Source of the DNA: Auanema rhodensis
Taxonomy: Eukaryota > Animalia > Nematoda
Assembly (NCBI GenBank): GCA_964057225.1
Contig: OZ059897.1
Span: forward strand, 7,564,001-7,628,000
Direction of reading: 5' to 3'
Length of the DNA: 64,000 nt
Each line of letters starts with the position of its first letter. Position 1 is the stretch's first letter. Positions 10,035 through 64,000 of the stretch are shown here, one piece after another. The notes below the pieces were generated by a model, which did not search any database, was not told the DNA's origin, and saw only the letters and a list, made by a program, of their open reading frames with translations. A program made the position numbers and the translations under genes.

Positions 10035-10039
10035 ATGTA

Positions 10040-10112
10040 GCCTCGTTAGCTCAGCTGGTAAAGCGTTAGACTTTTAATCTAACGGTCAGGGGTTCGAGCC
10101 CCCTACATGGCT
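10040..10112 (+). pseudogene. Damaged first tRNA-Lys(UUU) copy
   Basis: D-stem GAGC>AAGC and 3' acceptor strand ACGGGGC>ACATGGC break pairing. Confidence 0.7.
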
Positions 10113-10298
10113 AATTTTTTTCATTCTATCTGTCCCGAACATGTAAAACTTAATTTTCTTACCTTGTTTAAACTTTTATTTATTCCAGAATCTTGAATTT
10201 TTCTTCAAATATAGATCTTTTTGAATTAAATTTAGAAGTAAATATACTATTCTATGAGTAAGTACTTCATTATTTTTATGAAATGGTGACGATATGTA

Positions 10299-10371
10299 GC
10301 CTCGTTAGCTCAGCTGGTAGAGCGTTAGACTTTTAATCTAACGGTCAGGGGTTCGAGCCCCCTACGGGGCT
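10299..10371 (+). tRNA. trnK-UUU: tRNA-Lys(UUU), consensus copy (representative of the large majority of copies)
   Basis: GCCTCGT/ACGGGGC acceptor; GCTC/GAGC D-stem; TTAGA-CTTTTAA-TCTAA anticodon arm; AGGGG-TTCGAGC-CCCCT T arm; U73; intact A and B boxes; no intron; no encoded CCA. Confidence 0.97.
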
Positions 10372-10373
10372 AA

Positions 10374-10379
10374 TTTTTT
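10374..10379 (+). terminator. RNA polymerase III oligo-T terminator (present after almost every copy)
   Basis: AA followed by T5-T7 directly after the discriminator base. Confidence 0.85.
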
Positions 10380-13300
10380 ACATTCTATCTGTCCCGAACA
10401 TGTAAAACTTAATTTTCTTACCTTGTTTGAACTTTTATTTATTCCAGAATCTTGAATTTTTCTTCAAATATAGATCTTTTTGAATTGAATTTAGAAGTAA
10501 ATATACTATTCTATGAGTAAGTACTTCATTATTTTTATGAAATGGTGACGATATGTAGCCTCGTTAGCTCAGCTGGTAGAGCGTTAGACTTTTAATCTAA
10601 CGGTCAGGGGTTCGAGCCCCCTACGGGGCTAATTTTTTTCATTCTATCTGTCCCGAAAATGTAAAACTTAATTTTCTTACCGTGTTCAAACTTTTATTTA
10701 TTCCAGAATCTTGAATTTTTCTTCAAATATAGATCTTTTTGAATTAAATTTAGAAGTAAATATAATATTGTATGAGGAAGTACTTCATTATTTTTATGAA
10801 ATGGTGACGATATGTAGCCTCGTTAGCTCAGCTGGTAGAGCGTTAGACTTTTAATCTAACGGTCAGGGGTTCGAGCCCCCTACGGGGCTAATTTTATTCA
10901 TTCTATCTGTCCCGAACATGTAAAACTTAATTTTCTTACCGTGTTCAAACTTTTATTTATTCCAGAATTTTGAATTTTTCTTCAAATATAGATCTTTTTG
11001 AATTAAATTTAGAAGTAAATATAATATTGTATGAGGAAGTACTTCATTATTTTTATGAAATGGTGACGATATGTAGCCTCTTTAGCTCAGCTGGTAGAGC
11101 GTTAGACTTTTAATCTAACGGTCAGGGGTTCGAGCCCCCTACGGGGCTAATTTTTTACATTCTATCTGTCCCGAACATGTAAAACTTAATTTTCTTACCT
11201 TGTTTGAACTTTTATTTATTCCAGAATCTTGAATTTTTCTTCAAATATAGATCTTTTTGAATTGAATTTAGAAGTAAATATACTATTCTATGAGTAAGTA
11301 CTTCATTATTTTTATGAAATGGTGACAATATGTAGCCTCGTTAGCTCAGCTGGTAGAGCGTTAGACTTTTAATCTAACGGTCAGGGGTTCGAGCCCCCTA
11401 CGGGGCTAATTTTTTTCATTCTATCTGTCCCGAACATGTAAAACTTAATTTTCTTACCTTGTTTAAACTTTCATTTATTCCAGAATCTTGAATTTTTCTT
11501 CAGATATAGATCTTTTTGAATTAAATTTAGAAGTAAATATACTATTCTATGAGTAAGTACTTCATTATTTTTATGAAATGGTGACGATATGTAGCCTCGT
11601 TAGCTCAGCTGGTAGAGCGTTAGACTTTTAATCTAACGGTCAGGGGTTCGAGCCCCCCACGGGGCTAATTTTTTACATTCTATCTGTCCCGAACATGTAA
11701 AACTTAATTTTCTTACCTTGTTTAAACTTTTATTTATTCCAGAATCTTGAATTTTTCTTCAAATATAGATCTTTTTGAATTAAATTTAGAACTAAATATA
11801 CTATTCTATGAGTAGGTACTTCATTAATTTTATGAAATGGTGACGATATGTGGCCTCGTTAGCTCAGCTGGTAGAGCGTTAGACTTTTAATCTAACGGTC
11901 AGGGGTTCGAGCCCCCTACGGGGCTAATTTGTCACATTCTATCGGTCCCGAACATGTAAAACTTAATTTTCTTACATTGTTTAAACTTTTATTTATTCCA
12001 GAATCTTGAATTTTTCTTCAAATATAGATCTTTTTGAATTAAATTTAGAAGTAAATATACTATTCTATGAGTAAGTACTTCATTATTTTTATGAAATGGT
12101 GACGATATGTAGCCTCGTTAGCTCAGCTGGTAGAGCGTTAGACTTTTAATCTAACGGTCAGGGGTTCGAGCCCCCTACGGGGCTAATTTTTTACATTCTA
12201 TCTGTCCCGAACATGTAAAACTTAATTTTCTTACCTTGTTTGAACTTTTATTTATTCCAGAATCTTGAATTTTTCTTCAAATATAGATCTTTTTGAATTG
12301 AATTTAGAAGTAAATATACGATTCTATGAGTAAGTACTTCATTATTTTTATGAAATGGTGACGATATGTAGCCTCGTTAGCTCAGCTGGTAGAGCGTTAG
12401 ACTTTTAATCTAACGGTTAGGGGTTCGAGCCCCCTACGGGGCTAATTTTTTTCATTCTATCTGTCCCGAACATGTAAAACTTAATTTTCTTACCTTGTTT
12501 AAACTTTCATTTATTCCAGAATCTTGAATTTTTCTTCAAATATAGATCTTTTTGAATTAAATTTAGAAGTAAATATACTATTCTATGAGTAAGTACTTCA
12601 TTATTTTTATGAAATGGTGACGATATGTAGCCTCGTTAGCTCAGCTGGTAGAGCGTTAGACTTTTAATCTAACGGTCAGGGGTTCGAGCCCCCCACGGGG
12701 CTAATTTTTTACATTCTATCTGTCCCGAACATGTAAAACTTAATTTTCTTACCTTGTTTAAACTTTTATTTATTCCAGAATCTTGAATTTTTCTTCAAAT
12801 ATAGATCTTTTTGAATTAAATTTAGAACTAAATATGCTATTCTATGAGTAGGTACTACATTAATTTTATGAAGTTAAGAGGATGTGTGGCCTCGTTAGCT
12901 CAGCTGGTAGAGCGTTAGACTTTTAATCTAACGGTCAGGGGTTCGAGCCCCCTACGGGGCTAATTTTTTACATTCTATCTGTCCCGAACATGTAAAACTT
13001 AATTTTCTTACCTTGTTTAAACTTTTATTTATTCCAGAATCTTGAATTTTTCTTCAAATATAGATCTTTTTGAATTAAATTTAGAAGTAAATATACTATT
13101 GTATGAGTAGGTACTTCATTATTTTTATGAAATGGCGACGATATGTAGCCTCGTTTGCTCAGCTGGTAGAGCGTTAGACTTTTAATCTAACGGTCAGGGG
13201 TTCGAGCCCCCTACGGGGCTAATTTTTAACATTCTATCTGTTCCGAACATGTAAAACTTTATTTTCTTACCTTGTTTAAACTTTTATTTATTCCAGAATC

Positions 13301-13665
13301 TTGAATTTTTCTTCAAATATAGATCTTTTTGAATTAAATTTAGAAGTAAATATACTATTGTATGAGTAGGTACTTCATTGTTTTTATGAAATGGCGACGA
13401 TATGTAGCCTCGTTAGCTCAGCTGGTAGAGCGTTAGACTTTTAATCTAACGGTCAGGGGTTCGAGCCCCCTACGGGGCTAATTTTTTACATTCTATCTGT
13501 TCCGAACATGTAAAACTTTATTTTCTTACCTTGTTTAAACTTTTATTTATTCCAGAATCTTGAATTTTTCTTCAAATATAGATCTTTTTGAATTAAATTT
13601 AGAAGTAAATATACTATTGTATGAGTAGGTACTTCATTATTTTTATGAAATGGCGACGATATGTA

Positions 13666-13738
13666 GCCTCGTTAGCTCAGCTGGTAAAGCGTTAGACTTT
13701 TAATATAACGGTCAGGGGTTCGAGCCCCCTACGGGGCT
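13666..13738 (+). pseudogene. tRNA-Lys variant with D-stem and anticodon-stem mismatches
   Basis: GGTAAAGC instead of GGTAGAGC, and TATAA instead of TCTAA. Confidence 0.6.
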
Positions 13739-16700
13739 AATTTTTTACATTCTATCTGTCCCGAACATGTAAAACTTTATTTTCTTACCTTGTTTGAACT
13801 TTCATTTATTCCAGAATCTTGAATTTTTCTTCAAATATAGATCTTTTTGAATTAAATTTAGAAGTAAATATACTATTGTATGAGTAGGTACTTCATTATT
13901 TTTATGAAATGGCGACGATATGTAGCCTCGTTAGCTCAGCTGGTAGAGCGTTAGACTTTTAATCTAACGGTCAGGGGTTCGAGCCCCCTACGGGGCTAAT
14001 TTTTAACATTCTATCTGTTCCGAACATGTAAAACTTTATATTCTTACCTTGTTTAAACTTTTATTTATTCCAGAATCTTGAATTTTTCTTCAAATATAGA
14101 TCTTTTTGAATTAAATTTAGAAATAAATATACTATTGTATGAGTAGGTACTTCATTATTTTTATGAAATGGCGACGATATGTAGCCTCGTTAGCTCAGCT
14201 GGTAGAGCGTTAGACTTTTAATCTAACGGTCAGGGGTTCGAGCCCCCTACGGGGCTAATTTTTTACATTCTATCTGTCCCGAACATGTAAAACTTTATTT
14301 TCTTACCTTGTTTGAACTTTCATTTATTCCAGAATCTTGAATTTTTCTTCAAATATAGATCTTTTTGAATTAAATTTAGAAGTAAATATACTATTGTATG
14401 AGTAGGTACTTCATTATTTTTATGAAATGGCGACGATATGTAGCCTCGTTAGCTCAGCTGGTAGAGCGTTAGACTTTTAATCTAACGGTCAGGGGTTCGA
14501 GCCCCCTACGGGGCTAATTTTTTACATTCTATCTGTCCCGAACATGTAAAACTTTATTTTCTTACCTTGTTTGAACTTTCATTTATTCCAGAATCTTGAA
14601 TTTTTCTTCAAATATAGATCTTTTTGAATTAAATTTAGAAGTAAATATACTATTGTATGAGTAGGTACTTCATTATTTTTATGAAATGGCGACGATATGT
14701 AGCCTCGTTAGCTCAGCTGGTAGAGCGTTAGACTTTTAATCTAACGGTCAGGGGTTCGAGCCCCCTACGGGGCTAATTTTTTACATTCTATCTGTTCCGA
14801 ACATGTAAAACTTTATTTTCTTACCTTGTTTAAACTTTTATTTATTCCAGAATCTTGAATTTTTCTTCAAATATAGATCTTTTTGAATTAAATTTAGAAG
14901 TAAATATACTATTGTATGAGTAGGTACTTCATTATTTTTATGAAATGGCGACGATATGTAGCCTCGTTAGCTCAGCTGGTAGAGCGTTAGACTTTTAATC
15001 TAACGGTCAGGGGTTCGAGCCCCCTACGGGGCTAATTTTTTACATTCTATCTGTCCCGAACATGTAAAACTTTATTTTCTTACCTTGTTTGAACTTTCAT
15101 TTATTCCAGAATCTTGAATTTTTCTTCAAATATAGATCTTTTTGAATTAAATTTAAAAGTAAATATACTATTCTATGAGTAGGTACTTCATTATTTTTAT
15201 GAAATGGCGACGATATGTAGCCTCGTTAGCTCAGCTGGTAGAGCGTTAGACTTTTAATCTAACGGTCAGGGGTTCGAGCCCCCTACGGGGCTAATTTTTA
15301 ACATTCTATCTGTTCCGAACATGTAAAACTTAATTTTCTTACCTTGTTTGAACTTTCATTTATTCCAGAATCTTGAATTTTTCTTCAAATATAGATCTTT
15401 TTGAATTAAATTTAAAAGTAAATATACTATTCTATGAGTAGGTACTTCATTAATTTTATGAAGTTAGGAGGATGTGTAGCCTCGTTAGCTCAGCTGGTAG
15501 AGCGTTAGACTTTTAATCTAACGGTCAGGGGTTCGAGCCCCCTACGGGGCTAATTTTTTACATTCTATCTGTCCCGAACATGTAAAACTTAATTTTCTTA
15601 CCTTGTTTAAACTTTCATTTATTCCAGAATCTTGAATTTTTCTTCAAATATAGATCTTTTTGAATTAAATTTAAAAGTAAATATACTATTCTATGAGTAG
15701 GTACTTCATTATTTTTATGAAATGGCGACGATATGTAGCCTCGTTAGCTCAGCTGGTAGAGCGTTAGACTTTTAATCTAACGGTCAGGGGTTCGAGCCCC
15801 CTACGGGGCTAATTTTTTACATTCTATCTGTCCCGAACATGTAAAACTTTATTTTCTTACCTTGTTTGAACTTTCATTTATTCCAGAATCTTGAATTTTT
15901 CTTCAAATATAGATCTTTTTGAATTAAATTTAAAAGTAAATATACTATTCTATGAGTAGGTACTTCATTAATTTTATGAAGTTAGGAGGATGTGTAGCCT
16001 CGTTAGCTCAGCTGGTAGAGCGTTAGACTTTTAATCTAACGGTCAGGGGTTCGAGACCCCTACGGGGCTAATTTTTTACATTCTATCTGTCCCGAACATG
16101 TAAAACTTAATTTTCTTACCTTGTTTAAACTTTTATTTATTCCAGAATCTTGAATTTTTCTTCAAATATAGATCTTTTTGAATTAAATTTAGAAGTAAAT
16201 ATACTATTCTATGAGTAAGTACTTCATTATTTTTATGAAATGGTGACGATATGTAGCCTCGTTAGCTCAGCTGGTAGAGCGTTAGACTTTTAATCTAACG
16301 GTCAGGGGTTCGAGCCCCCTACGGGGCTAATTTTTTACATTCTATCTGTCCCGAACATGTAAAACTTAATTTTCTTACCTTGTTTAAACTTTCATTTATT
16401 CCAGAATCTTGAATTTTTCTTCAAATATAGATCTTTTTGAATTAAATTTAGAAGTAAATATAATATTGTATGAGTAAGTACTTCATTATTTTTATGAAAT
16501 GGTGACGATATGTAGCCTCGTTAGCTCAGCTGGTAGAGCGTTAGACTTTTAATCTAACGGTCAGGGGTTCGAGCCCCCTACGGGGCTAATTTTTTACATT
16601 CTATCTGTTCCGAACATGTAAAACTTTATATTCTTACCTTGTTTAAACTTTTATTTATTCCAGAATCTTGAATTTTTCTTCAAATATAGATCTTTTTGAA

Positions 16701-19700
16701 TTAAATTTAGAAATAAATATACTATTGTATGAGTAGGTACTTCATTATTTTTATGAAATGGCGACGATATGTAGCCTCGTTAGCTCAGCTGGTAGAGCGT
16801 TAGACTTTTAATCTAACGGTCAGGGGTTCGAGCCCCCTACGGGGCTAATTTTTTACATTCTATCTGTCCCGAACATGTAAAACTTTATTTTCTTACCTTG
16901 TTTGAACTTTCATTTATTCCAGAATCTTGAATTTTTCTTCAAATATAGATCTTTTTGAATTAAATTTAGAAGTAAATATACTATTGTATGAGTAGGTACT
17001 TCATTATTTTTATGAAATGGCGACGATATGTAGCCTCGTTAGCTCAGCTGGTAGAGCGTTAGACTTTTAATCTAACGGTCAGGGGTTCGAGCCCCCTACG
17101 GGGCTAATTTTTTACATTCTATCTGTCCCGAACATGTAAAACTTTATTTTCTTACCTTGTTTGAACTTTCATTTATTCCAGAATCTTGAATTTTTCTTCA
17201 AATATAGATCTTTTTGAATTAAATTTAGAAGTAAATATACTATTGTATGAGTAGGTACTTCATTATTTTTATGAAATGGCGACGATATGTAGCCTCGTTA
17301 GCTCAGCTGGTAGAGCGTTAGACTTTTAATCTAACGGTCAGGGGTTCGAGCCCCCTACGGGGCTAATTTTTTACATTCTATCTGTTCCGAACATGTAAAA
17401 CTTTATTTTCTTACCTTGTTTAAACTTTTATTTATTCCAGAATCTTGAATTTTTCTTCAAATATAGATCTTTTTGAATTAAATTTAGAAGTAAATATACT
17501 ATTGTATGAGTAGGTACTTCATTATTTTTATGAAATGGCGACGATATGTAGCCTCGTTAGCTCAGCTGGTAGAGCGTTAGACTTTTAATCTAACGGTCAG
17601 GGGTTCGAGCCCCCTACGGGGCTAATTTTTTACATTCTATCTGTCCCGAACATGTAAAACTTTATTTTCTTACCTTGTTTGAACTTTCATTTATTCCAGA
17701 ATCTTGAATTTTTCTTCAAATATAGATCTTTTTGAATTAAATTTAAAAGTAAATATACTATTCTATGAGTAGGTACTTCATTATTTTTATGAAATGGCGA
17801 CGATATGTAGCCTCGTTAGCTCAGCTGGTAGAGCGTTAGACTTTTAATCTAACGGTCAGGGGTTCGAGCCCCCTACGGGGCTAATTTTTAACATTCTATC
17901 TGTTCCGAACATGTAAAACTTAATTTTCTTACCTTGTTTGAACTTTCATTTATTCCAGAATCTTGAATTTTTCTTCAAATATAGATCTTTTTGAATTAAA
18001 TTTAAAAGTAAATATACTATTCTATGAGTAGGTACTTCATTAATTTTATGAAGTTAGGAGGATGTGTAGCCTCGTTAGCTCAGCTGGTAGAGCGTTAGAC
18101 TTTTAATCTAACGGTCAGGGGTTCGAGCCCCCTACGGGGCTAATTTTTTACATTCTATCTGTCCCGAACATGTAAAACTTAATTTTCTTACCTTGTTTAA
18201 ACTTTTATTTATTCCAGAATCTTGAATTTTTCTTCAAATATAGATCTTTTTGAATTAAATTTAGAAGTAAATATACTATTCTATGAGTAAGTACTTCATT
18301 ATTTTTATGAAATGGTGACGATATGTAGCCTCGTTAGCTCAGCTGGTAGAGCGTTAGACTTTTAATCTAACGGTCAGGGGTTCGAGCCCCCTACGGGGCT
18401 AATTTTTTACATTCTATCTGTCCCGAACATGTAAAACTTAATTTTCTTACCTTGTTTAAACTTTTATTTATTCCAGAATCTTGAATTTTTCTTCAAATAT
18501 AGATCTTTTTGAATTAAATTTAGAAGTAAATATAATATTGTATGAGTAAGTACTTCATTATTTTTATGAAATGGTGACGATATGTAGCCTCGTTAGCTCA
18601 GCTGGTAGAGCGTTAGACTTTTAATCTAACGGTCAGGGGTTCGAGCCCCCTACGGGGCTAATTTTTTACATTCTATCTGTCCCGAACATGTAAAACTTAA
18701 TTTTCTTACCTTGTTTAAACTTTTATTTATTCCAGAATCTTGAATTTTTCTTCAAATATAGATCTTTTTGAATTAAATTTAGAAGTAAATATACTATTCT
18801 ATGAGTAAGTACTTCATTATTTTTATGAAATGGTGACGATATGTAGCCTCGTTAGCTCAGCTGGTAGAGCGTTAGACTTTTAATCTAACGGTCAGGGGTT
18901 CGAGCCCCCTACGGGGCTAATTTTTTACATTCTATCTGTCCCGAACATGTAAAACTTAATTTTCTTACCTTGTTTAAACTTTTATTCATTCCAGAATCTT
19001 GAATTTTTCTTCAAATATAGATCTTTTTGAATTAAATTTAGAAGTAAATATACTATTCTATGAGTAAGTACTTCATTATTTTTATGAAATGGTGACGATA
19101 TGTAGCCTCGTTAGCTCAGCTGGTAGAGCGTTAGACTTTTAATCTAACGGTCAGGGGTTCGAGCCCCCTACGGGGCTAATTTTTTACATTCTATCTGTCC
19201 CGAACATGTAAAACTTAATTTTCTTACCTTGTTTAAACTTTTATTTATTCCAGAATCTTGAATTTTTCTTCAAATATAGATCTTTTTGAATTAAATTTAG
19301 AAGTAAATATACTATTGTATGAGTAGGTACTTCATTATTTTTATGAAATGGCGACGATATGTAGCCTCGTTAGCTCAGCTGGTAGAGCGTTAGACTTTTA
19401 ATCTAACGGTCAGGGGTTCGAGCCCCCTACGGGGCTAATTTTTTACATTCTATCTGTCCCGAACATGTAAAACTTTATTTTCTTACCTTGTTTGAACTTT
19501 CATTTATTCCAGAATCTTGAATTTTTCTTCAAATATAGATCTTTTTGAATTAAATTTAGAAGTAAATATACTATTCTATGAGTAAGTACTTCATTATTTT
19601 TATGAAATGGTGACGATATGTAGCCTCGTTAGCTCAGCTGGTAGAGCGTTAGACTTTTAATCTAACGGTCAGGGGTTCGAGCCCCCTACGGGGCTAATTT

Positions 19701-43263: not shown

Positions 43264-43269
43264 AATTTT

Positions 43270-46562: not shown

Positions 46563-46576
46563 GGCAACGATATGTA

Positions 46577-50272: not shown

Positions 50273-50371
50273 AATTTTTTACATTCTATCTGTCCCGAAC
50301 ATGTAAAACTTAATTTTCTTACCTTGTTTAAACTTTTATTTATTCCAGAATCTTGAATTTTTCTTCAAATA

Positions 50372-50787: not shown

Positions 50788-50805
50788 TGGAGGTTCCGCC
50801 GAGAT
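50788..50805 (+). promoter_or_regulatory. E3 primer-binding site, tRNA-Gln
   Basis: TGGAGGTTCCGCCGAGAT immediately 3' of the LTR; complementary to ATCTCGGTGGAACCTCCA with one G:U pair. Confidence 0.85.
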
Positions 50806-51987
50806 CCTTCCTTTTGGACAGGATCTCGTAAAGGAACTCAAGCGCTACCGTCTACATCTCTTATTCAATTAAAAATCTTATCTCTCTCTTAAAGTTAGCT
50901 TATAATATTTTCTTAAAAACTCTAAAACTTTTCTATTAAAAATTATATCCAAAAACTCTTTACAAAAACTCAGTTTTCCATTCATTATATTCTCATAAAT
51001 CATTTTCAATTATTCATAAGAGTACTTATATCATTTATCATTCTCTCTATCCAAAATCCTATATACGAAAATTATTCAAATTCAATAATTAACTTTTCTA
51101 AGAATTATAAGTTTATTTTCACATTTTTGAACAAAAATAGTTGAGTTCTTTATAAAATTAATTTAGAAATAAAAAAGAATATTGCTTCTATACCTCTCAA
51201 TCTTAATCATCTTACCATATTATCTGAATCTTCATCTTATCATACTATCTTAATCATCCTATCATACCATATTTTCATTATTTTCTTTATGTTCGTTTAT
51301 AAAACTATTATTCTTATGCTACTACACTGTATTCTCATAAACCCACCCCTTCCCCCCCCCCCGTAATTTCATAAGCAAGAAATCCCGTGTTAAACACGAC
51401 AGTAAAAATATTTATTAGGCGCAGCGTATCCAAGTTCCGATTACCTTAGCACCTGAAAAAACGAAAAATAATTAAATTAATCAATAAGTTTTAACTCATA
51501 CGCAAAAACCATCCCCCCCTCGTTAAGAATAATGCCAGACACTCAAGAGACTCGAGCGGAGGCCGACACTCAGGATAAGACGTACGCCCCATGAAATAAT
51601 TAGAGAATTTTTGAATTAAAATCTGCCCCACATTGATATAAATAATAAGAGTGGTCTCGCCATCATAGAGTCAGGGAGCAGGATGCAGAAGGCAGCTGAC
51701 ATACCTGTGACTCAGATAGGTTAATGAGGTCTGGGAAAATGAAATGATTGCGAAAATTCTATTTTGTATCCTTGTCCCAAAAGACTGGCGAACTATTAAC
51801 TTTCATTTCATGCCTTTTTCACAATATAGAACTTGTCCCTTCGAAAAGGCACACTAGTTTCAAACCTGTGTTAGACCCGGACGAGCTATATTGGTAAAGA
51901 GATTACTTGCAAGACTAGCTACCTTCATAAGAATCGCGCACACAAACCCAACATTATTCTTTACGTTTTTCTATATATAAAATTATT

Positions 51988-54900
51988 TTGGCACACGTTG
52001 GATATAACAAATTTCCTTACAGGATACCAACGATGCTGCTCAATACTGGTCCAAAACCTCCGCTGGACCCTGCTGCCACTTCAAATATTATAAGAAGGAA
52101 AAGACAACCGCCCGCAACATATTCTCCCCCCTCTGCAAAACAAGCGAAGTTAAGCATTAAAACAAAGTCAATGGTAATACATACCCCAAGACATCGCGGC
52201 ATTCAAAAACAATTCACCAATCCCAAATCACATGAAAAAACGAAGAAACAAAAAACAGACATAGTCGAAAGAAACACCTTAGAAAAGAAAATTATCCCAA
52301 ACATTAAACCTATTCCTAAAAACATAGCAAGCAAAGGGAACCCTCAAAACCCCCCAACCAACACCATACCAAATACAATCAACCCAATCAATCCTTTAAT
52401 AGCCACCCCTAGAAGAAGCAATACACCAACCACACAAAAATCACCTACGCCCGCACTTTCTTCAACCACACCCGCAGTAAGCTCATCCCCACCTCTACGA
52501 AACTCACCTTCATCCATTGATCATTCTACATCCGGGCATTCTCTATCTCCGTCTCTTCCATCGCAAACTAATCAAGCAAATACTTTTGTTGCAGAAAACA
52601 AGAGAATTAACCCAAGAATGGACCCAATGGACGAAGGCGCACCACTTACGCAAACCTCGGGAAGGGCACCTGTTCCAACACCTACAATCATCCCTCAACC
52701 AGCAGCGATTCCGTCCGCCATACGCGATATAAAAGCTCCACGCTACGATGGAAAAACACCATTCAACCGCTATCTACTATACCTAGATGAACACTTCAAC
52801 GCTACAAGAACAACTATGCCCGAACGTCTTCAAAGCATACAATTATTGCTAGAAGATGATCGAGCAAGAGAAGCGTACAGAAAACTCACAACCGAAGATA
52901 AGCGACTCGGATGGGACCATGTCAAGAAGCGACTCTCAGAAATGATCACACCGAAAAAACAGAGAGAACGAGCAATGCACCGCCTACATGGCTTGAAACA
53001 ATTACCAACGGAATCGGTACAAAGCTTTGCAACAAGATGTTCTAACGAAGCCTACTCGGCTATGGACATGAACAACGAAAGTGAGCTTAACATGCTCCGA
53101 TCCACCTTCACCTGGGGACTAAGACCCGAAATAAGCGAACACGTTAGCCGTCTAGACCCACCAAACTTTGAGGAAGCTTACGAAATGGCCTTACGAGAAG
53201 AACTCTTTATACAAAATAGACCAACATCGTTTGTCAACAATATAGAGAAGTCGTTCAACAACCTCAACATTCGAGACTCAAAGGACAACAATCAATACCA
53301 GAGAAACGAATCTAAGGATTTCAAAGGAACCAAACCGATGTATAATGGCAATGGCAAACCACACAACCGATATCCGGACAGATACAACAACCAATATCGG
53401 CCTCATCAACACCAATACAGGAACCATAACTCACGATTCTCTCAAAATAAGGGATCAAGACAAAACTACTTCGACAGATCACGGAACAGAAGCCAAGAAA
53501 GACCATACTATCGAAACCGCGATCAAAACTATAGCGGACACAACAACCGGCGACAATCAAATAATCACGAACAATACCCCTCTCAATACAATCGAAGCCA
53601 ATACAACAATTATAGAAGTCGCCCGCGCAGCACCTCCAATGGACCGGAACGGTATAGAGAACGCACACAGAGCCCAGGAGTACGTTTTCAAGTCAACAAC
53701 GTCACAGAAAACGAAGTACCGAACAACAAAAGAAAATCAACACCATTCCTACCCCTCTTTATCACAATTATCGCACTCATTATAAACACATGCAGTGCAG
53801 AAACAACGTACCAGTTATGCACAGGAAACAGAGGAGGAATATATGTCGAGCCGCCATCTCCAACAGCTTGCCGATTCATCGCACCAACTAATAACCATAT
53901 CCAGAAGACTACAGCAGAATTGTTCATCCAAAACCTACAACCAAAAGAATGGGAAGCATGGAAATGTGCAATTGAAACTTACCAACTCTGCATTCACGAC
54001 GTTTTCTTCATCAGAGAAACTAATGTCTCACTAGCAAAAGTTTCACCAACAACACTGCAAGAATGTTCGTCAGCTATTAAAGAAAGAATATTCAACGGTA
54101 CCAACCTTCAAAGAGAAGCACCAGGACTCTATGGAACTCCATTCCCAGAGACAACCATTACTAATGGTATATGGAAACAGGAATGCGAACAACGTACCAG
54201 ATTCATAGCTGAACGAGGACACATGACCAGCCTACAAGACAATACAGTACTCTCAGATATATTCATAAACGACAACGGATGCACCAGTGACAAAGGACAA
54301 TGCCTAACCAACAACGCTCTCATCATATGGACCCCACCATCAGAAAAACATAGTTGCTCGTACACTTCATTAGGCTCTCACGAAGTTTTTATATCAGAAG
54401 ACACCATATTGATTCCCGGAATTCAAAGTGCTTTTATTCTAAACAATAAAACACCGGAAAAAGAAGCCTCCTCATGCTTACAAAAAGAGATATTTACTAC
54501 AAATAGCGGAACTCTAATCTCCTTCAACTCAACCTCAAGCTTAGGACGATCAAGAAGACACGCAATCACGGAATACCCTAAAGGATTCTTGACAGTTCAT
54601 CAATACCCCTCGCTAAGATATTCAGCCAGCAAAACCGGAACTATTCTACTATATACAACCTATATTCAACGGAAAAGACTTGACATCCATTACAATCTCA
54701 ATAACATAACAAATATGTTACCTAAGTATATCGCAATCTTCAAATACCTAGGTATAAATTTTGATGTTATCAAAAATCGTCTTATATGGCACAAATATGA
54801 AGACGTCAACATAGCCATTCTACACGCCCTAGGAGAAGCAGAAATAAGAGAAGCAACAAAAATCGCGATCGATAATCTATCGTATAAGGAACTTACGCAT

Positions 54901-57900
54901 AAACTTAGCAAACGGATCACAATTAAGGATTTTAAGAAGATACTACCAACCAAAACAGGAGACTACTATGAAATCGCGAAAGAAATTGCTTACTCACTTG
55001 CGGAAATACCAACTACGTTAGCTACAGGAGAAACAACACCATCTTTAGAAGAATACTTATATCAACTCATGCCACCAAGAAAACCAAGACTCACCAAGAC
55101 ACGAAACGATTTAGAACTGTACGAACAACTAGCACAAGCAAAAATTATCCTGAACGCAATAAATAATCCGAAAAAGCTACATTCAAAAGAAGAATACGAA
55201 GCAGAAATGAAGAAATGGATCAAATATGAAAAAGAACTGAACTTACCACCATTACAACTGCCAAACTACACAGTTATCTTCGATGGCGACGATATATTCT
55301 ACGGCTTCCGGAAAAGAAATCCTACAAATTATAGCATTACACAAGAGGATAGTGAAAAATTTTATAATCATTATCTACCCCTTATCAGTACTCCCGGAAC
55401 ACGACCTTTTGCAACCACAATTAGAAGCACTTCGACCCCCCTACAAACTACTACTACAACCACTACCACGACCCCTAAGCCTACAACCATAAGGAACGTC
55501 ATCACTTCGACAATCACACCCAAAACACATATATCCACAACAACTAGACCCAAACCAACAATACCCACGTCTTCATCAACTACTACTACTACTACCACTA
55601 CTACTACTACTACTTCTACTACTGCTAGACCCAGATCAACAACAACCACAACACCTACAACAACCACAACTATATTCACCACTCATCGACCAACACAATC
55701 ATTCTCCACCCCCCAATCTACATTCAATATTACTACAAACCCAATCACAATCACCTCAAGCCAGGAATACAATAGGAAAGAATCACTCACCAAGTCACCG
55801 CCTCCAAGAACTACAAAAAGATCTATCACTACCACTCGCAGCACACCTGAAGAAATATCATCACATATTGGTAAGAAAGCTCACGTAGACTACCTTAAAG
55901 CTAAGAACGATATCGTCCAAAAATGGAATGAACATCTTCATCAACAAGAAACGCAATCTCATCTACAATATGCCACTACCAATCTGGAAGATGATATCAT
56001 ACGTACGTTCACAACAAACAGAAACAACATCTGCCACGTACAAAATAAACAACTACTTACCTGGTGGGCTATTCTTCAAATAAATCCTACTATAGGGATG
56101 CGTACAATGCTACGACGACAGGATATATCTGCAAGATTCATAAATGATAAACTAATTTATGTAATGCCATGCACACCAATTCAAATTACAAAAACATACC
56201 GCGATCACAAAGTCAACAGCACGTGTTTTCTGGAAACCCCAGTCGAAACGGAACATCACGGCCAACTGTTCATCCTACCAGGTACAAGAGACCTCACACC
56301 GATGGCACATGCCATACCATGCGGATTCACAATCAAGGATCCCTGGAAAGAAAACGATCAATGGACTAATAATAACCAATCAATAAATGTAACATCACCA
56401 GCATACATCGACGAGTTAGGATCAATCAACCTAGAACATATCAAGTTTAATGGAAGCAACATTTTCAACAATCTAACAGAATCAACGTTTCCTATGGCAC
56501 TAGCAATATCATATGGATCCAGCTTAGCAACGCTACAAGCTACTTTACCAGGAAGAATAAAACCTATAATCAAACAAAGATTAATTCCTAACATGAACCC
56601 TGTTACCCTAACAGCAGGAGCAGCCAGCAGCTTACTACTCAGCTACGAACATACAAAAGAAGCTATAACCTGGAAAATGTTTGACTTTCTGTCACCAATA
56701 TGGGAAAAGATTCAAACCTGGACACTACGCGTACTTGCTATCATTGGATCAATCATCATAACAATTGGCATAATCACACTCGCCACCTGGATAATAAAAA
56801 TATACGCATGTAGTTCAAGGATACCCATCAACAATGTCAAATGGGAAGCAGAATACTTACAACCACTATCAACTGAAGACACAAGAACAGAAACATCTCA
56901 TCCTTCTCCGTCCGCTCCATACGTCGACAACCATCACAACAGCTGTCAACTCACATTGTATGATCCTTCAGCACCAATTCCTGAACACATTTATGAAGCT
57001 TATTTCCCTACAAGCATGAAGAAAGAAAACATAAACTACATAGGAGGATCACAATTACCGTTTGTCCCGATTTCAATCCACAATCACATCTTTAAGGCAC
57101 TATGGGACACGGGAGCATCAGCATCATACATGCGAGAATCCACCTTCAAACAACTGCCCGCTGCAACGATGGTACTAAAACAAACAACAGCGATAGTCGC
57201 GAATAAATCTAAATTCTCATTTATGGGATACACAAGGATCCTCATAACAATAGGAACAACAGAAACAGAACACAAATTTTATGTAGCAGAAGATAACTAC
57301 TGTCCAGCACCAGTGTTACTTGGAATAGACTTCATGGAAGCATTACATCAACAAGGAATTTACACCTCACTTCGACCGCTGGATAAAACAATTGTTATCG
57401 GCACAACACATGTTCCACTAGCACGAGAAACATCTCCGTGGGAACACCAGACCACGAAAGCATATGTGGTTAGCTTAGAAAACAAAACGCTAAGACCAGG
57501 AGAAACAAGAACGCTCACGCTAGAAGTACACGATCCAGAAAGCTATGAACAGGCGTTTCTAGATTGTAAGAAACCAGGCAACAAACTCTCTTTCACGCCT
57601 ACTATATTTACGCCAACTGGATACGGAGTACAAATTTACGCGACGAACATATGCAAACAGCCACTCGAAATTCAAATGAATCAAGAAATAGGGATAGCAG
57701 AAGCGATACCAAAGGACAACCAAGAAAAATACGAAGGACAATACATACCTCCAGAAGCTCGATGGGAAGAACAACTGCCATATTTCCCAGACAATTTCAT
57801 CAATGAGCTTGACCTTTCAGAAGCCTGCTTCTCACAAATCGAACAACAGCAACTGAAAGAAATAATTTTACTACATAAACAAGCGTTTCTCAACGAAGAT

Positions 57901-60900
57901 AGAAATATCGGACTCTTCCTAGGACCAATTGAACACTCCATTCCAATCATGCCAGGAAAAACACCATCATTCAAAATTACTTATCGTATACCACTCTCCC
58001 AACAAGAAGAAGTGGAGAAACAAATAGAAGAAATGCTACAACAAAGAATCATTGAACCATCAAACTCAATGACAACTAGTCCAGTAATTTTGGTGAAGAA
58101 GAAAGACAAAACTTACAGATTTGTAACGGACTTTCGAGCTTTGAATGCAATCACTCAGAAACAAGTATATGTTATATCAAACATACAGGACATCCTAGAT
58201 TTGGCCGCTGGAGCAAGGATCTTCAGCAACTTTGATTTAGTATCTGGATTTTTCCAAATACCTCTTAAGAAAGAAGATCGTCATCTTACAGCTTTCACAA
58301 CAACAAGTGGAACTTATCAATATTGTCGAATGCCGATGGGATTATGTGGATCACCCCATACTTTTCAAAACGCAGTACGATACCTGCAATCAATGGTTAA
58401 ATGCAAGCTATTCGTATATCTAGATGATTTACTGTTAATCTCTGAATCTACGACAGCACATTTAAAAGATATTGAAGAAGTTTTGGAAGCAGTAACTCAA
58501 ATAGGATTCAAAATAAAACTGAAGAAATGCGCATTCGCAAGAAAGGAAGTAAAATTTCTAGGATACATAGTTGGACAAGAAGGAATTAAACCGGACCCAC
58601 ATAAAATTAAGGCAATACAAGATTATCCCCAACCAAAATCAACAACAGGAGTAAGAGCTTTCATGGGAGTAGTAAACTACTTCAGAAGGTTCATAAAGAA
58701 CGCTGCAGGAATAGCAACACCACTCTACAACCTCACTCGGAAAGACACTCCATTCAAATGGACAGAAGAAGAAGAAATTGCTTTTAATACTTTGAAGAAA
58801 ACATTGACTCAAGCACCTGTGTTACAAGCACCAATCCCGAAGCGACCATATGTTATTGAAAGTGATGGAAGTATGATAGCAGTTGGCGCTGTACTACTTC
58901 AAGCGAAAGACGATCAAGAACCATTACATCCAATAGCTTTTGCTAGTCGGAAACTCAACAAAGCTGAAAGGAATTATCCACCAATAGAAGTAGAAGCATT
59001 AGCTCTTACATTCGCCGTCAAACAATTTCGCACCTACATACTAGGAACAGCAACCAAAATTATCACGGACCATAGACCACTCACTAGTTTAATGACTAGA
59101 AAGGATTTAATAGGTCGTTTAGCAAAATTTCAAATTGTTTTACAAGAATACGATATTGAAATTATCTACAGACCAGGAAAATTAAACAGTGTATGTGACG
59201 CATTATCACGATATTTTGAAGATGAAATCAACGAAGCAAAACCACCAGCAAAGAAGAAAAACGAAAGAAAAACGACGGAAGATACTATTCATCAGATAAA
59301 CACCTTCACGATAGCAGATATTCGATCAGTTCAGAATCAATCAAATTGGATAAAAGAAACTATGGATAAAATAAAGAACAATACAGCTGGACGACAACTG
59401 ACGGACAGATATATTGTGTACAACGATGTACTATACTCAAAACCAAAAAGAAGCCTACAAGTACCACGAACAATTTTACCACGAGAAGAACACATAATTA
59501 ATCCAATTATGAAGAAATTTCATGAAGATCCGACACTCGGAGCTCATCTAGGAATAAACAAAACAATGGACTCAATATCAAGACGATTTACATGGACTGG
59601 AATGCAAGAAGACATTACAAACTACATCAACAGATGTCTTGCTTGTGCAAAAAGAAAGAACAATCCTCACGAAGCAACGGTGGAACCAATGAAAAATTTT
59701 CCAACATCAACAAAACCATGGCAAAGAGTACACATGGATATACTCGGACCATTACCTAGGACAGAACAAGAAAACAGATATGTTCTTTCAATTCAAGATT
59801 CTTTTTCAAAATGGATAATCGCAATTCCGCTAATCAGACAAACATCAGAAGAAATTATATCAGCTATCGAAAAATACCTCTTCTATGTTTTTGGACCACC
59901 TGTCACTATCATCACAGACAATGGATCTAATTTTATTTCAAACGATTTCACCACTATGTGCAGTAATTTTGGAACTACACACCACACTACTATGCCGTAT
60001 TACAAAAACGCTAACGGACAAGTAGAAAGATTACATCGGACGATCGAAGAAGCATTAACAGCCTACGTTAATGACGAACAAAACGATTGGGATAAGATAC
60101 TTCCGAAGATTATTTTTACACTCAACAGATTACCAAACGCCACCACTAAAACATCACCATACGAATGTTTGTTTGGACAAGTAGCACGTCTACCCATTGA
60201 CAAAAACTTGGAAACACCGGAAGAACAAAATACCACGGATCAGCTCAAAAACTTAAGAGATATTCAAGAAAAAGTCAAGGAAAAGATTGCCACCAATGAA
60301 GAAAGAATGAAGCAGAAATACGATCAAGCACATAGGACAAAAGAAAGAATATTAGATATAGGAGATCGAGTATTTGTACAAAGAGCGAACCCAAGCAACA
60401 AATTACAAATACGAAGAGATGGACCTTACCGGATAGTGACAATTGAAGGAAACAACATCAGCATAACGGACCAAGATGGAAATATTATAAAAGCTCACAA
60501 AAATAACATACGTTATTTTCCACCAGACGATAATCTTATATCAACAAGAAATAATGAAGAAGAGGAAGAAGAGGACCAAGACATAGCAAACGAAGAAGAA
60601 GAAGAAGAAGAAGCAAGTTGGAATAATCTGGATGAATGGGAACAAACCAATAATACGGAAAATAACAACAACTGTTACCCAACAGGCAGTCCAGATACTC
60701 TCGCGCAACTGTTACCTATCACAGGGAATAACAGAGGAGTAAACGAAGAAGAAATTGAACATAACTCAGAAACACCTGACGACCTTGCTACAGCAAGAAG
60801 AATAACAAATTCTAATATACAATTAGAAGATGAATCAACAACAATCGACAGAATTCAAGAGGACCTCAGACAGCTGACACCTTTCTCTCAAGAAGAAGGT

Positions 60901-61233
60901 CCTAATCAAAACGATATAGAAGATAATAACGCAAAAACATACGAAAAGCTACGAGATCAATTCAAGAATGAAAACAGAAAGGAGCTATTTGAGGACAGAA
61001 ACAAAAACTCACCAGCAATCAAAAATTGGAACACTACACTTGCCGCAGCACTAGGAATAGGAAATGAAAACTCACGCCCGTATCATGTTAAACTACAACC
61101 CAAAAGAAAAACACAAGACGAAGAAATCAGAAGTAATGGAGAATTGGAACTACATGGAAAAGCGGATCAAAGCAAAAAGCAGCAGAATAAATCTCCAACG
61201 CAAAACAAAGGAGAACAAGTACGAAACTTTTAA
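51988..61233 (+). CDS. E3 Gag-Env-Pol polyprotein (3081 aa from TTG; first ATG at 52033)
   Basis: Colinear with E1: capsid (PRYDGKTPF), N/R/Q/Y-rich region, signal peptide, env, TM, protease LWDTGA (~57106), RT YLDD (~58417), RNase H, integrase HHCC/DDE/GPY, long acidic tail. Confidence 0.95.
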   Translation: MAHVGYNKFPYRIPTMLLNTGPKPPLDPAATSNIIRRKRQPPATYSPPSAKQAKLSIKTKSMVIHTPRHRGIQKQFTNPKSHEKTKKQKTDIVERNTLEKKIIPNIKPIPKNIASKGNPQNPPTNTIPNTINPINPLIATPRRSNTPTTQKSPTPALSSTTPAVSSSPPLRNSPSSIDHSTSGHSLSPSLPSQTNQANTFVAENKRINPRMDPMDEGAPLTQTSGRAPVPTPTIIPQPAAIPSAIRDIKAPRYDGKTPFNRYLLYLDEHFNATRTTMPERLQSIQLLLEDDRAREAYRKLTTEDKRLGWDHVKKRLSEMITPKKQRERAMHRLHGLKQLPTESVQSFATRCSNEAYSAMDMNNESELNMLRSTFTWGLRPEISEHVSRLDPPNFEEAYEMALREELFIQNRPTSFVNNIEKSFNNLNIRDSKDNNQYQRNESKDFKGTKPMYNGNGKPHNRYPDRYNNQYRPHQHQYRNHNSRFSQNKGSRQNYFDRSRNRSQERPYYRNRDQNYSGHNNRRQSNNHEQYPSQYNRSQYNNYRSRPRSTSNGPERYRERTQSPGVRFQVNNVTENEVPNNKRKSTPFLPLFITIIALIINTCSAETTYQLCTGNRGGIYVEPPSPTACRFIAPTNNHIQKTTAELFIQNLQPKEWEAWKCAIETYQLCIHDVFFIRETNVSLAKVSPTTLQECSSAIKERIFNGTNLQREAPGLYGTPFPETTITNGIWKQECEQRTRFIAERGHMTSLQDNTVLSDIFINDNGCTSDKGQCLTNNALIIWTPPSEKHSCSYTSLGSHEVFISEDTILIPGIQSAFILNNKTPEKEASSCLQKEIFTTNSGTLISFNSTSSLGRSRRHAITEYPKGFLTVHQYPSLRYSASKTGTILLYTTYIQRKRLDIHYNLNNITNMLPKYIAIFKYLGINFDVIKNRLIWHKYEDVNIAILHALGEAEIREATKIAIDNLSYKELTHKLSKRITIKDFKKILPTKTGDYYEIAKEIAYSLAEIPTTLATGETTPSLEEYLYQLMPPRKPRLTKTRNDLELYEQLAQAKIILNAINNPKKLHSKEEYEAEMKKWIKYEKELNLPPLQLPNYTVIFDGDDIFYGFRKRNPTNYSITQEDSEKFYNHYLPLISTPGTRPFATTIRSTSTPLQTTTTTTTTTPKPTTIRNVITSTITPKTHISTTTRPKPTIPTSSSTTTTTTTTTTTTSTTARPRSTTTTTPTTTTTIFTTHRPTQSFSTPQSTFNITTNPITITSSQEYNRKESLTKSPPPRTTKRSITTTRSTPEEISSHIGKKAHVDYLKAKNDIVQKWNEHLHQQETQSHLQYATTNLEDDIIRTFTTNRNNICHVQNKQLLTWWAILQINPTIGMRTMLRRQDISARFINDKLIYVMPCTPIQITKTYRDHKVNSTCFLETPVETEHHGQLFILPGTRDLTPMAHAIPCGFTIKDPWKENDQWTNNNQSINVTSPAYIDELGSINLEHIKFNGSNIFNNLTESTFPMALAISYGSSLATLQATLPGRIKPIIKQRLIPNMNPVTLTAGAASSLLLSYEHTKEAITWKMFDFLSPIWEKIQTWTLRVLAIIGSIIITIGIITLATWIIKIYACSSRIPINNVKWEAEYLQPLSTEDTRTETSHPSPSAPYVDNHHNSCQLTLYDPSAPIPEHIYEAYFPTSMKKENINYIGGSQLPFVPISIHNHIFKALWDTGASASYMRESTFKQLPAATMVLKQTTAIVANKSKFSFMGYTRILITIGTTETEHKFYVAEDNYCPAPVLLGIDFMEALHQQGIYTSLRPLDKTIVIGTTHVPLARETSPWEHQTTKAYVVSLENKTLRPGETRTLTLEVHDPESYEQAFLDCKKPGNKLSFTPTIFTPTGYGVQIYATNICKQPLEIQMNQEIGIAEAIPKDNQEKYEGQYIPPEARWEEQLPYFPDNFINELDLSEACFSQIEQQQLKEIILLHKQAFLNEDRNIGLFLGPIEHSIPIMPGKTPSFKITYRIPLSQQEEVEKQIEEMLQQRIIEPSNSMTTSPVILVKKKDKTYRFVTDFRALNAITQKQVYVISNIQDILDLAAGARIFSNFDLVSGFFQIPLKKEDRHLTAFTTTSGTYQYCRMPMGLCGSPHTFQNAVRYLQSMVKCKLFVYLDDLLLISESTTAHLKDIEEVLEAVTQIGFKIKLKKCAFARKEVKFLGYIVGQEGIKPDPHKIKAIQDYPQPKSTTGVRAFMGVVNYFRRFIKNAAGIATPLYNLTRKDTPFKWTEEEEIAFNTLKKTLTQAPVLQAPIPKRPYVIESDGSMIAVGAVLLQAKDDQEPLHPIAFASRKLNKAERNYPPIEVEALALTFAVKQFRTYILGTATKIITDHRPLTSLMTRKDLIGRLAKFQIVLQEYDIEIIYRPGKLNSVCDALSRYFEDEINEAKPPAKKKNERKTTEDTIHQINTFTIADIRSVQNQSNWIKETMDKIKNNTAGRQLTDRYIVYNDVLYSKPKRSLQVPRTILPREEHIINPIMKKFHEDPTLGAHLGINKTMDSISRRFTWTGMQEDITNYINRCLACAKRKNNPHEATVEPMKNFPTSTKPWQRVHMDILGPLPRTEQENRYVLSIQDSFSKWIIAIPLIRQTSEEIISAIEKYLFYVFGPPVTIITDNGSNFISNDFTTMCSNFGTTHHTTMPYYKNANGQVERLHRTIEEALTAYVNDEQNDWDKILPKIIFTLNRLPNATTKTSPYECLFGQVARLPIDKNLETPEEQNTTDQLKNLRDIQEKVKEKIATNEERMKQKYDQAHRTKERILDIGDRVFVQRANPSNKLQIRRDGPYRIVTIEGNNISITDQDGNIIKAHKNNIRYFPPDDNLISTRNNEEEEEEDQDIANEEEEEEEASWNNLDEWEQTNNTENNNNCYPTGSPDTLAQLLPITGNNRGVNEEEIEHNSETPDDLATARRITNSNIQLEDESTTIDRIQEDLRQLTPFSQEEGPNQNDIEDNNAKTYEKLRDQFKNENRKELFEDRNKNSPAIKNWNTTLAAALGIGNENSRPYHVKLQPKRKTQDEEIRSNGELELHGKADQSKKQQNKSPTQNKGEQVRNF
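53746..56810 (+). other. env: E3 envelope glycoprotein region (gB-like class III)
   Basis: Signal FLPLFITIIALIINTCSA; Cys pattern conserved with E1; RSRR furin site (54547-54558); Thr-rich mucin (~55410-55740); CHVQNKQLLTWWAILQINPTIGMRTML..ISARF..PC and CFLETPV; TM ~56725-56805. Confidence 0.8.
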
Positions 61234-61436
61234 TTAACTAACAAAAATCGTAGAATTGTAAAAATAATTTTTCTTTCTTTCGTATAGTACATTAAACATA
61301 AGACATAGATCAAAAACCACCGAAATTCTAATTTCTATCCTTTAATTTTAACAAATTGTAACAATCACTGAAAAACAAACTATATAAAGAGAAAATTTTG
61401 ATAGAGAAAAATTCAATAACACTTTTCTTACTCAAA

Positions 61437-61985
61437 ATGACCTCCTCTCTCGCCAACGTCACACTCTCTACATTCCTCGCAACTCCAACACCACTGGTCC
61501 CTCTAGCGACCACTATTGAACAAGAATGGATAGAGGTAGAAAACCTTCGTGAAGGTCTTCTACCTATCAACTGCATGAAGCCCAACTTAGGACCAATAAT
61601 AAGCCTCCAAACGAGCAAATTGGAAAAGAAGACACAGCACATCCTATTTATGATGGAACTATTGGAGGAGAAAACCAAAAACTATAAGGAAAACGATCTG
61701 AAGGAGCTTCGCCAGCATCAAAAGAAATGGACAGAAGGATGTTCTCTCAGCCAGAAAGAGAACAGAATCCGACACATAATGCTGGGACAACCCGCCAGAA
61801 CGCAGACCACAGCTGACATCTATAAAGCAATGCCGACATGGACAACACAGATGACACAACAAGCTGTAGGAAATAGCGGAACCGAAGAAGAAGCATCGTG
61901 GATAGAGATAGGGCAAGACCTATCAGTAGTAATCAAAAAAACTACTGACAAAAAGGACTACCAACATGTCCGCATCAAAAAGTAA
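61437..61985 (+). CDS. E3 accessory ORF2 (182 aa from ATG), unknown function
   Basis: AAAATG context; coding-like composition between two AT-rich tracts; lies inside the element between pol and the 3' LTR; no family recognised. Confidence 0.6.
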   Translation: MTSSLANVTLSTFLATPTPLVPLATTIEQEWIEVENLREGLLPINCMKPNLGPIISLQTSKLEKKTQHILFMMELLEEKTKNYKENDLKELRQHQKKWTEGCSLSQKENRIRHIMLGQPARTQTTADIYKAMPTWTTQMTQQAVGNSGTEEEASWIEIGQDLSVVIKKTTDKKDYQHVRIKK

Positions 61986-62264
61986 GGCAAAAGCAGTTAG
62001 CCAAACCATCAGAACAATGGAGCTGCTTGGACTAGCATCAATGACGGAAATGATCCAGGAAATTGACCAACTGGCGGATTAAAGAAGAGAGGAAAGGTTT
62101 AAATCATTTATAAAATTCTATCTCTTAAAAATTTTTCTCTTTATCAATAATTTGTTGAAAAATTTGCTTTATCTCATGCCATTTTTTTTTAATTTTTATT
62201 TTTCTCTCTTAATTATTATTTGCATATAACAGCTGAGGTCAGCTGACTTGTATCCGTTGGGGCA

Positions 62265-62680
62265 TGTTACATACATATCTCAAAGGAAAGCAGCTGACCA
62301 TGGCAGCTGCTATTATTAAACTAATGCAGATAGTTTTTAAGCAATTCTGAGAATATTCTAGATGCACTTTTTATAAACTTTGTAACAATTTGTGTAAACT
62401 GAGTAGGAGTTGTATGGATATATAAACCTGAGTCCTCAAGACTCAGGATCTCATTATCTCATTATCTTACTTTCTCTTTATCTTCTTTATATTCTCTTTC
62501 TTAACTCTAGCTTTAATCTTTGTATAATTATATTATAATGCGAACAATAAACCTTTATATATTTCATCTCTTGTTTCTTATTTCACCTTACATTACACAC
62601 TTATATTTAAAATCATACTCATCGTCTCATAATCTGTTTGGATATCTCAACTTGGAACCATTGAGAATCTAAATGGAACG
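62265..62680 (+). repeat. E3 3' LTR
   Basis: Same sequence as 50372-50787; preceded by GGGG-CA. Confidence 0.97.
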
Positions 62681-64000
62681 AATATAGATCTTTTTGAATT
62701 AAATTTAGAAGTAAATATAATATTGTATGAGTAAGTACTTCATTATTTTTATGAAATGGCGACGATATGTAGCCTCGTTAGCTCAGCTGGTAGAGCGTTA
62801 GACTTTTAATCTAACGGTCAGGGGTTCGAGCCCCCTACGGGGCTAATTTTTAACATTCTATCTGTTCCGAACATGTAAAACTTTATTTTCTTACCTTGTT
62901 TAAACTTTTATTTATTCCAGAATCTTGAATTTTTCTTCAAATATAGATCTTTTTGAATTAAATTTAGAAGTAAATATACTATTGTATGAGTAGGTACTTC
63001 ATTATTTTTATGAAGTTAGGAGGATGTGTAGCCTCGTTAGCTCAGCTGGTAGAGCGTTAGACTTTTAATCTAACGGTCAGGGGTTCGAGCCCCCTACGGG
63101 GCTAATTTTTTACATTCTATCTGTCCCGAACATGTAAAACTTAATTTTCTTACCTTGTTTAAACTTTTATTTATTCCAGAATCTTGAATTTTTCTTCAAA
63201 TATAGATCTTTTTGAATTAAATTTAGAAGTAAATATACTATTGTATGAGTAGGTACTTCATTATTTTTATGAAATGGCGACGATATGTAGCCTCGTTAGC
63301 TCAGCTGGTAGAGCGTTAGACTTTTAATCTAACGGTCAGGGGTTCGAGCCCCCTACGGGGCTAATTTTTAACATTCTATCTGTTCCGAACATGTAAAACT
63401 TTATTTTCTTACCTTGTTTAAACTTTTATTTATTCCAGAATCTTGAATTTTTCTTCAAATATAGATCTTTTTGAATTAAATTTAGAAGTAAATATACTAT
63501 TGTATGAGTAGGTACTTCATTAATTTTATGAAGTTAGGAGGATGTGTAGCCTCGTTAGCTCAGCTGGTAGAGCGTTAGACTTTTAATCTAACGGTCAGGG
63601 GTTCGAGCCCCCTACGGGGCTAATTTTTTACATTCTATCTGTCCCGAACATGTAAAACTTAATTTTCTTACCTTGTTTAAACTTTTATTTATTCCAGAAT
63701 CTTGAATTTTTCTTCAAATATAGATCTTTTTGAATTAAATTTAGAAGTAAATATACTATTGTATGAGTAGGTACTTCATTATTTTTATGAAATGGCGACG
63801 ATATGTAGCCTCGTTAGCTCAGCTGGTAGAGCGTTAGACTTTTAATCTAACGGTCAGGGTTCGAGCCCCCTACGGGGCTAATTTTTTACATTCTATCTGT
63901 CCCGAACATGTAAAACTTTATTTTCTTACCTTGTTTGAACTTTCATTTATTCCAGAGTCTTGAATTTTTCTTCAAATATAGATCTTTTTGAATTAAATTT
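62681..64000 (+). repeat. tRNA-Lys(UUU) array block 3: 5 copies, running off the window
   Basis: Gene starts 62772, 63031, 63290, 63549, 63808 (the last with the T-stem deletion). Confidence 0.96.
62772..62844 (+). tRNA. trnK-UUU: tRNA-Lys(UUU), representative of block 3
   Basis: Consensus cloverleaf. Confidence 0.95.

Follow-up and report, generated by a model that had tools for sequence, protein, structure and literature searches.

The window analysed here, a stretch of 64,000 bp from the nematode Auanema rhodensis, consists for the most part of tandem copies of one tRNA-Lys(UUU) gene. This raises the question of whether the copies are working genes maintained by selection, a satellite that happens to contain a tRNA, a structural element of the chromosome or a product of the assembly. 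The layout of the array, the variation among its copies, and the mobile elements found within and beside it were investigated.

Layout of the array and anatomy of its unit

ARAGORN detected 149 tRNA-Lys(ttt) genes in the whole window, all on the forward strand and in blocks of 129, 15 and 5, and TRF reported a period of 259 bp with 96-97% matches at 10035-43270, 46569-50372 and 62681-64000. The number, orientation and period of the copies given in an original prediction, made from the letters of the sequence, were thereby confirmed. The same prediction had treated all of 10035-64000 as array, but about 15.6 kb of this span consists of two LTR retrotransposon insertions. It had overlooked that the interruptions of the array are LTR retrotransposons. 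The window contained the following features:

1..10034, + strand: element A, a GAG-ENV-POL Ty3/gypsy element whose 5' LTR lies outside the window (open reading frame, domains, LTR)
10035..43269, + strand: array block I, 129 tRNA-Lys(UUU) genes (TRF, ARAGORN, unit alignment)
10299..10371, + strand: example copy of the majority tRNA-Lys(UUU) gene, the body of which is identical in 134 of 149 copies
43270..46562, - strand: element C, an internally deleted relative of element A (LTRs, primer site)
46563..50371, + strand: array block II, 15 genes (TRF, ARAGORN)
50372..62680, + strand: element B, a full-length GAG-ENV-POL element (open reading frame, domains, LTRs, target duplication)
62681..64000, + strand: array block III, 5 genes, reaching past the end of the window (TRF, ARAGORN)

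As block III continues beyond the window, 149 genes is a minimum. The longest uninterrupted head-to-tail run was formed by the 129 genes of block I. The repeating unit was composed of a 73-bp gene, a T-run terminator and a 186-bp AT-rich spacer with a GC content of 24%, adding up to 259 bp, and each unit carried a full cloverleaf, the internal promoter boxes and the T-run. The majority gene scored 69.7 bits against the Rfam tRNA model with all 21 stem pairs standard, and a run of at least five T directly 3' of the gene was present in 143 of the 149 copies; together with the 134 identical bodies, this bears out the earlier statement that most copies have an intact cloverleaf and a terminator. 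Of 146 complete units 142 measured 259 bp and four 258 bp, and 71 distinct sequences were found among them. TRF reported no short tandem repeats inside the units. The possibility that the spacer holds another RNA gene was considered and rejected: between 43000 and 62900 no Rfam family other than the tRNA reached its gathering score, and two matches to LTRs fell far below it.

A scan of metagenomes with a 41-letter tRNA pattern gave a single match, a solitary gene (locus L001) that was identical to the arrayed gene at 72 of 73 bases, including U73, and had unrelated flanks. Such identity indicates a normal, conserved isodecoder in the array rather than a derivative that has decayed. A tRNA-derived SINE or a Helenus-type miniature LTR element was rejected as the identity of the unit, since the gene is intact; the degenerate tRNA part expected of a tRNA-derived SINE, satellite or Helenus-type unit was not observed, given the number of identical bodies, the near-identical homologue and the constraint described below. 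Contigs of two sequencing runs (X10 and X11) contained the tRNA body of the array with other flanks, so this tRNA may have other sources than the array.

The stretch was found in 15 sequencing runs from four studies, and six of these runs were compared on the basis of their contigs. Summed contig depth, which gives a rough ratio instead of a copy number and for one study may derive from the source of the window itself, was 3,250-34,800 for the unit against 145-177 for the interior of element B in run X5, and 19,200-97,700 against 640 for a contig with the LTR of element A in run X7. In run X10 the unit reached 260-350, and a contig bridging the element A joint without a difference had a depth of 8. 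By these rough figures the unit exceeded element sequence in depth by factors of tens to hundreds in the contigs of three DNA studies, which makes wholesale inflation of the assembly, the outcome that the original prediction had named as speaking against itself, unlikely. A many-copy array is indicated in at least two other studies. The right joint of element B was also present in run X4. In run X11, which is guessed to be RNA and is uninformative on expression, the whole unit appeared as one circular contig of 289 bases.

Variation, constraint and turnover

Diversity was lower in the gene (0.003) than in the spacer (0.040), in agreement with the earlier remark that variation falls mainly in the spacer. 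Sites with a variant shared by at least three copies numbered 0 of 73 in the gene against 28 of 186 in the spacer (Fisher p = 8e-5), and the contrast persisted in the 98 interior units (0 against 23, p = 4e-4), with the reservation that block duplication is the origin of shared variants, which do not count as independent events and make these p-values overstate the evidence. A gap of 79 bp free of common variants was obtained in 0.07% of 20,000 random placements. Singleton sites were equally frequent in both parts (12 of 73 in the gene, 28 of 186 in the spacer, p = 0.85). No variant of the gene body occurred in more than two copies, and spacer variants of intermediate frequency, present in 3-10 copies, likewise had no counterpart in the gene. 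Among the 15 variant genes, nine had a broken stem pair and two were without one base in the G run of the T stem, while three were altered only at an unpaired base (one of them in the T loop) and one retained its pair.

Since singletons are equally frequent in gene and spacer and common variants are confined to the spacer, purifying selection on the tRNA is suggested. Mutations of the gene would arise without spreading, as expected under selection on the product or on the promoter. Part of this constraint could be historical, if the common spacer haplotypes are older than the amplification or if the gene was converted from tRNA genes elsewhere.

At 17 common sites, 41 spacer haplotypes were distinguished. 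The description of the array as homogeneous consequently holds for the 259-bp repeat as such but not for the spacers, the haplotypes of which are arranged in duplicated blocks. A spacer stretch of 42 bp at unit positions 147-188 (for example 10445-10486 in the window) had no variant in three or more copies (p of about 0.01 by simulation), and low variation thus extends beyond the gene. Element B is inserted within this stretch, which also contained a short inverted repeat, and an additional A-type joint was located at the edge of the stretch. Just upstream of the gene, at unit positions 234-255, a linked haplotype of 6-7 substitutions was shared by about 29 units. As it covers the expected start of RNA polymerase III transcription, it may alter transcription, and it can serve to tag transcripts.

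Near-identical runs of 14, 10, 9, 8 and 5-6 units recurred at lags of 36, 5, 26, 10 and 4 units, respectively, against a longest recurrent run of five units in 200 shuffles. The duplicates included a block of eight units with no differences and one of 14 units with two. A single fixed higher-order period was rejected, as lags of 5, 10, 26 and 36 units were only local. In block I, rare alleles per unit amounted to 2.13 in units 1-15 and 0.73 in units 114-128, with values of 0.07-0.2 in between. Unequal exchange homogenises the interior of an array and spares its edges, and the combination of block duplications and divergent margins seen in the alignment is the pattern expected if the array is turned over in this way. 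Mutated genes were found in three of the five positions adjoining an insertion and in 12 of the 144 others (p = 0.007), a difference that was noticed post hoc. The first gene (10040-10112), next to element A, had three substitutions that break pairs of the D and acceptor stems, and from its sequence it looks like a decaying edge copy.

Origin and maintenance of the array

Judged from its sequence, the locus is probably a tandem series of tRNA-Lys(UUU) genes that are still intact; it likely provides a large share of this tRNA, is likely under purifying selection and turned over by unequal exchange, and has received three Ty3/gypsy insertions. At least some of the units would be transcribed one by one by RNA polymerase III, mutant gene copies would be removed before they could spread, unequal exchange would turn the array over, and retrotransposons would persist because the redundant array tolerates their insertion. 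The strongest competitor, although unlikely, is a mostly silent satellite that was seeded from a tRNA locus and drifts in copy number, with the working genes dispersed elsewhere and the apparent constraint left by past selection or conversion. With three retrotransposons in 64 kb the region does seem rich in repeats and tolerant of them, X10 and X11 contain the tRNA body next to other flanks, and the equal frequency of singletons in gene and spacer would be in line with such a satellite. Yet spacer variants carried by 3-10 copies are younger than the main haplotypes and are still absent from the gene, and terminator runs have been retained in nearly all copies (143 of 149). It is improbable that the array is chiefly a structural element in which dense TFIIIC sites act as a boundary, a condensin-loading site or a pairing site and selection acts on the A and B boxes. 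A role as boundary has reportedly been proposed in humans for a tRNA tandem repeat at 1q23.3 (PMC4041453), and the second block of low variation in the spacer would fit a structural role, but the constraint extends past the promoter boxes over the whole gene, including the acceptor and anticodon stems, which fits selection on the RNA.

The AT-richness of the spacer (24% GC) and a ratio of AAA to AAG of 126:69 and 150:57 in two frames, which belong to the elements and not to host genes, would agree with an array amplified by selection for the decoding of AAA codons in an AT-rich genome. This is a still more remote proposition, as similar nematode arrays carry tRNAs for Trp and Ser; the choice of isotype appears haphazard, and these precedents suggest that an amplified isotype need not follow codon demand. 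Least probable of all is over-expansion of a short repeat by the assembly. Some of the duplicated blocks are nearly or fully identical, so the exact count is possibly somewhat off, but 71 of the 146 units are distinct, blocks are nested and margins diverge, element B is cleanly inserted with a target duplication, its right joint recurs in X4 and the A joint in X10, and the unit is far deeper than the elements in three studies, one of them possibly the source of the window. An intact, selected array of tRNA genes accordingly remains the preferred reading.

The consulted parts of Eccles et al. (2018; PMC5765664) describe, for Nippostrongylus brasiliensis, about 150 copies of a tRNA-Trp unit roughly 200 bp long, in tandem, and 90 tandem tRNA-Ser copies with an 80-bp spacer. 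Like those arrays, as far as they are described there, the present one joins one conserved tRNA gene to a species-specific spacer, head to tail, while it differs in its isotype, Lys(UUU), and in its 259-bp unit; those parts make no mention of selection, block structure or retrotransposon insertions. Of the features that mark the Nippostrongylus type, an intact gene with a non-conserved spacer and about 90 or more head-to-tail copies were present, and transcription of the genes is predicted. Beyond this precedent, nothing further on nematode tRNA arrays was found in the literature searched, which covered few subscription papers. Clusters of 50 or more tRNA genes have also been reported in Nematostella and in teleosts (passages of PMC2888827). 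In the light of these partly consulted sources (PMC5765664, PMC2888827), the original view that such arrays are unusual in animals and best known from Entamoeba was overstated. Array units of Entamoeba hold up to five tRNA genes separated by short tandem repeats, according to sections of PMC2652664; on that account the long tandem tRNA arrays are a shared trait, whereas the single gene per unit and the lack of a short tandem repeat set the present array apart. The array is a further example of a nematode single-tRNA array, a phenomenon that was already known. It offers a clean, well-resolved case in which a sign of selection can be measured on the gene body and the insertions within are dated, useful for asking what selection does to a single copy in a set of 150, and it warns that tRNA counts from short reads may be far too low in nematodes.

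Retrotransposons in the array and their insertion sites

Element A contained one open frame at 192-8984 (2930 codons from stop to stop), and its 3' LTR (9677-10034) ended 5 bp upstream of the first tRNA gene. Element B likewise had a single open frame, at 51931-61233 (3100 codons from stop to stop), between two identical LTRs of 416 bp (50372-50787 and 62265-62680). The four bases AATA, at mid-spacer unit positions 169-172, were duplicated on either side of it; identical LTRs and a clean target duplication point to a very recent insertion. The LTRs of element C (46226-46562 and 43270-43586) differed at two positions in 317 bp and were 81% alike to those of element A. The LTR at 43270-43586 had lost its outer 20 bp along with adjacent spacer, and the 5' LTR started 14 bp upstream of the tRNA gene at 46577. 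Element C has kept a long 5' leader (about 44910-46210) and has lost nearly all coding sequence (joint near 44540), and it may be a non-autonomous derivative.

In both A and B the domains were ordered as gag, fusion glycoprotein, protease, reverse transcriptase (RT), RNase H, then integrase. PF24664 was found above the cut-off in element A, between gag and protease, and PF00606 below the cut-off in element B (E = 5.5e-5). The two elements were about 66% alike in the RT region and 28% identical over gag and the first part of env. The RT region of element B shared 59-62% of its residues with Caenorhabditis proteins of like domain content and envelope families, the highest identities among the 120 of 271 matches listed. 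The top-scoring matches, from Cordylochernes, were about 40% identical and owed their high score to repeated domains in long gene models; they were disregarded in judging the host. When compared by eye with the listed 12-base end of tRNA-Gln, the primer site of element C was an exact match and that of element B had one mismatch; the site of element A lies beyond the window. Priming on the arrayed tRNA-Lys was accordingly rejected, and priming on tRNA-Gln would make the elements independent of the arrayed tRNA.

Nematode GAG-ENV-POL Ty3/gypsy elements carry their genes in this same order, with env between gag and protease and with RT, RNase H and integrase behind, and have a gB-type envelope, as given in parts of a study (eLife 2026, PMC13524379). 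In the 15 of its 36 nematode table rows that were covered, a tRNA-Gln primer site is entered for eight, all Caenorhabditis, with none in six and another in one. Elements A and B agree with the elements described there in gene order and in having a gB-like or mononegaviral-like fusion domain, and B and C in the tRNA-Gln site; insertion into a tRNA array, as seen here, is absent from the passages of PMC13524379 on them. From the RT identities and these shared traits alone, the host would most likely be a nematode, with the reservation that bryozoans and flatworms have elements of the same gene order.

Joints lay at most 20 bp upstream of a tRNA gene in two of three cases in the window (p = 0.017) and in two of four (p = 0.032) when an additional joint from other runs was included, the 20-bp limit having been chosen post hoc in both calculations. 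This additional joint, of A type, was at unit position 146 in runs X1 and X4, and its short side spanned only 24-25 bases. An A-type LTR end 5 bp upstream of a gene was also found in X4, with four differences in 29 bases. None of the four joints was inside a tRNA gene, which is not significant (p = 0.27). Among the best-supported matches listed, A-type LTR ends with non-array flanks occurred in X4, X7 and X10 and an LTR of element B with another flank in X11, and exclusive targeting of the array was rejected on these grounds.

It is conceivable, though doubtful, that A and C represent a family of envelope-carrying animal Ty3/gypsy elements tethered, as yeast Ty3 is, to the RNA polymerase III start of tRNA genes, for which the tandem tRNA arrays of the host would serve as a safe haven. 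If so, LTR integration directed by RNA polymerase III would extend from fungi and amoebae to an animal, the array would be shown to be loaded with RNA polymerase III factors in the germline, and it would matter more than as a further array. Ty3/gypsy elements with insertion sites just upstream of tRNA genes (Ty3, Tj1, Tca8 and DGLT-A) are tabulated for fungi and social amoebae only in the consulted part of PMC5911963, whereas A-type LTRs here were also found in mid-spacer and in non-array flanks. Element B, in mid-spacer, also differs from these targeted elements, which are sited just upstream of the genes. The literature searched, which covered few subscription papers, yielded no LTR element of animals that targets tRNA genes as Ty3 does and nothing on insertion of Cer1-type elements near tRNA genes. 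In animals, multicopy tRNA genes are targeted by Dada transposons and by NeSL/LIN non-LTR elements (passages of PMC8869645 and PMC4640811). As presented there, these share with the present elements the use of redundant tRNA genes as tolerated insertion sites, but they are sequence-specific DNA transposons and non-LTR elements, respectively, and Dada inserts inside the gene, where none of the four joints was located.

LTRs usually begin with TG and end with CA. The ends observed here were non-canonical, with CG...CG in elements A and C, formed by a 6-bp inverted repeat, and TG...CG in element B (9677-10034, 46226-46562 and 50372-50787). The last six bases of the LTR were common to A, B and C in spite of the limited likeness of A and B in the RT region. 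In the envelope regions of both A (about 3780-4210) and B (about 55370-55890), the fusion protein is interrupted midway by a long mucin-like insert rich in Thr and Ser. Element B further had an open frame of 207 codons between pol and the 3' LTR (61362-61985), which is possibly an accessory gene.
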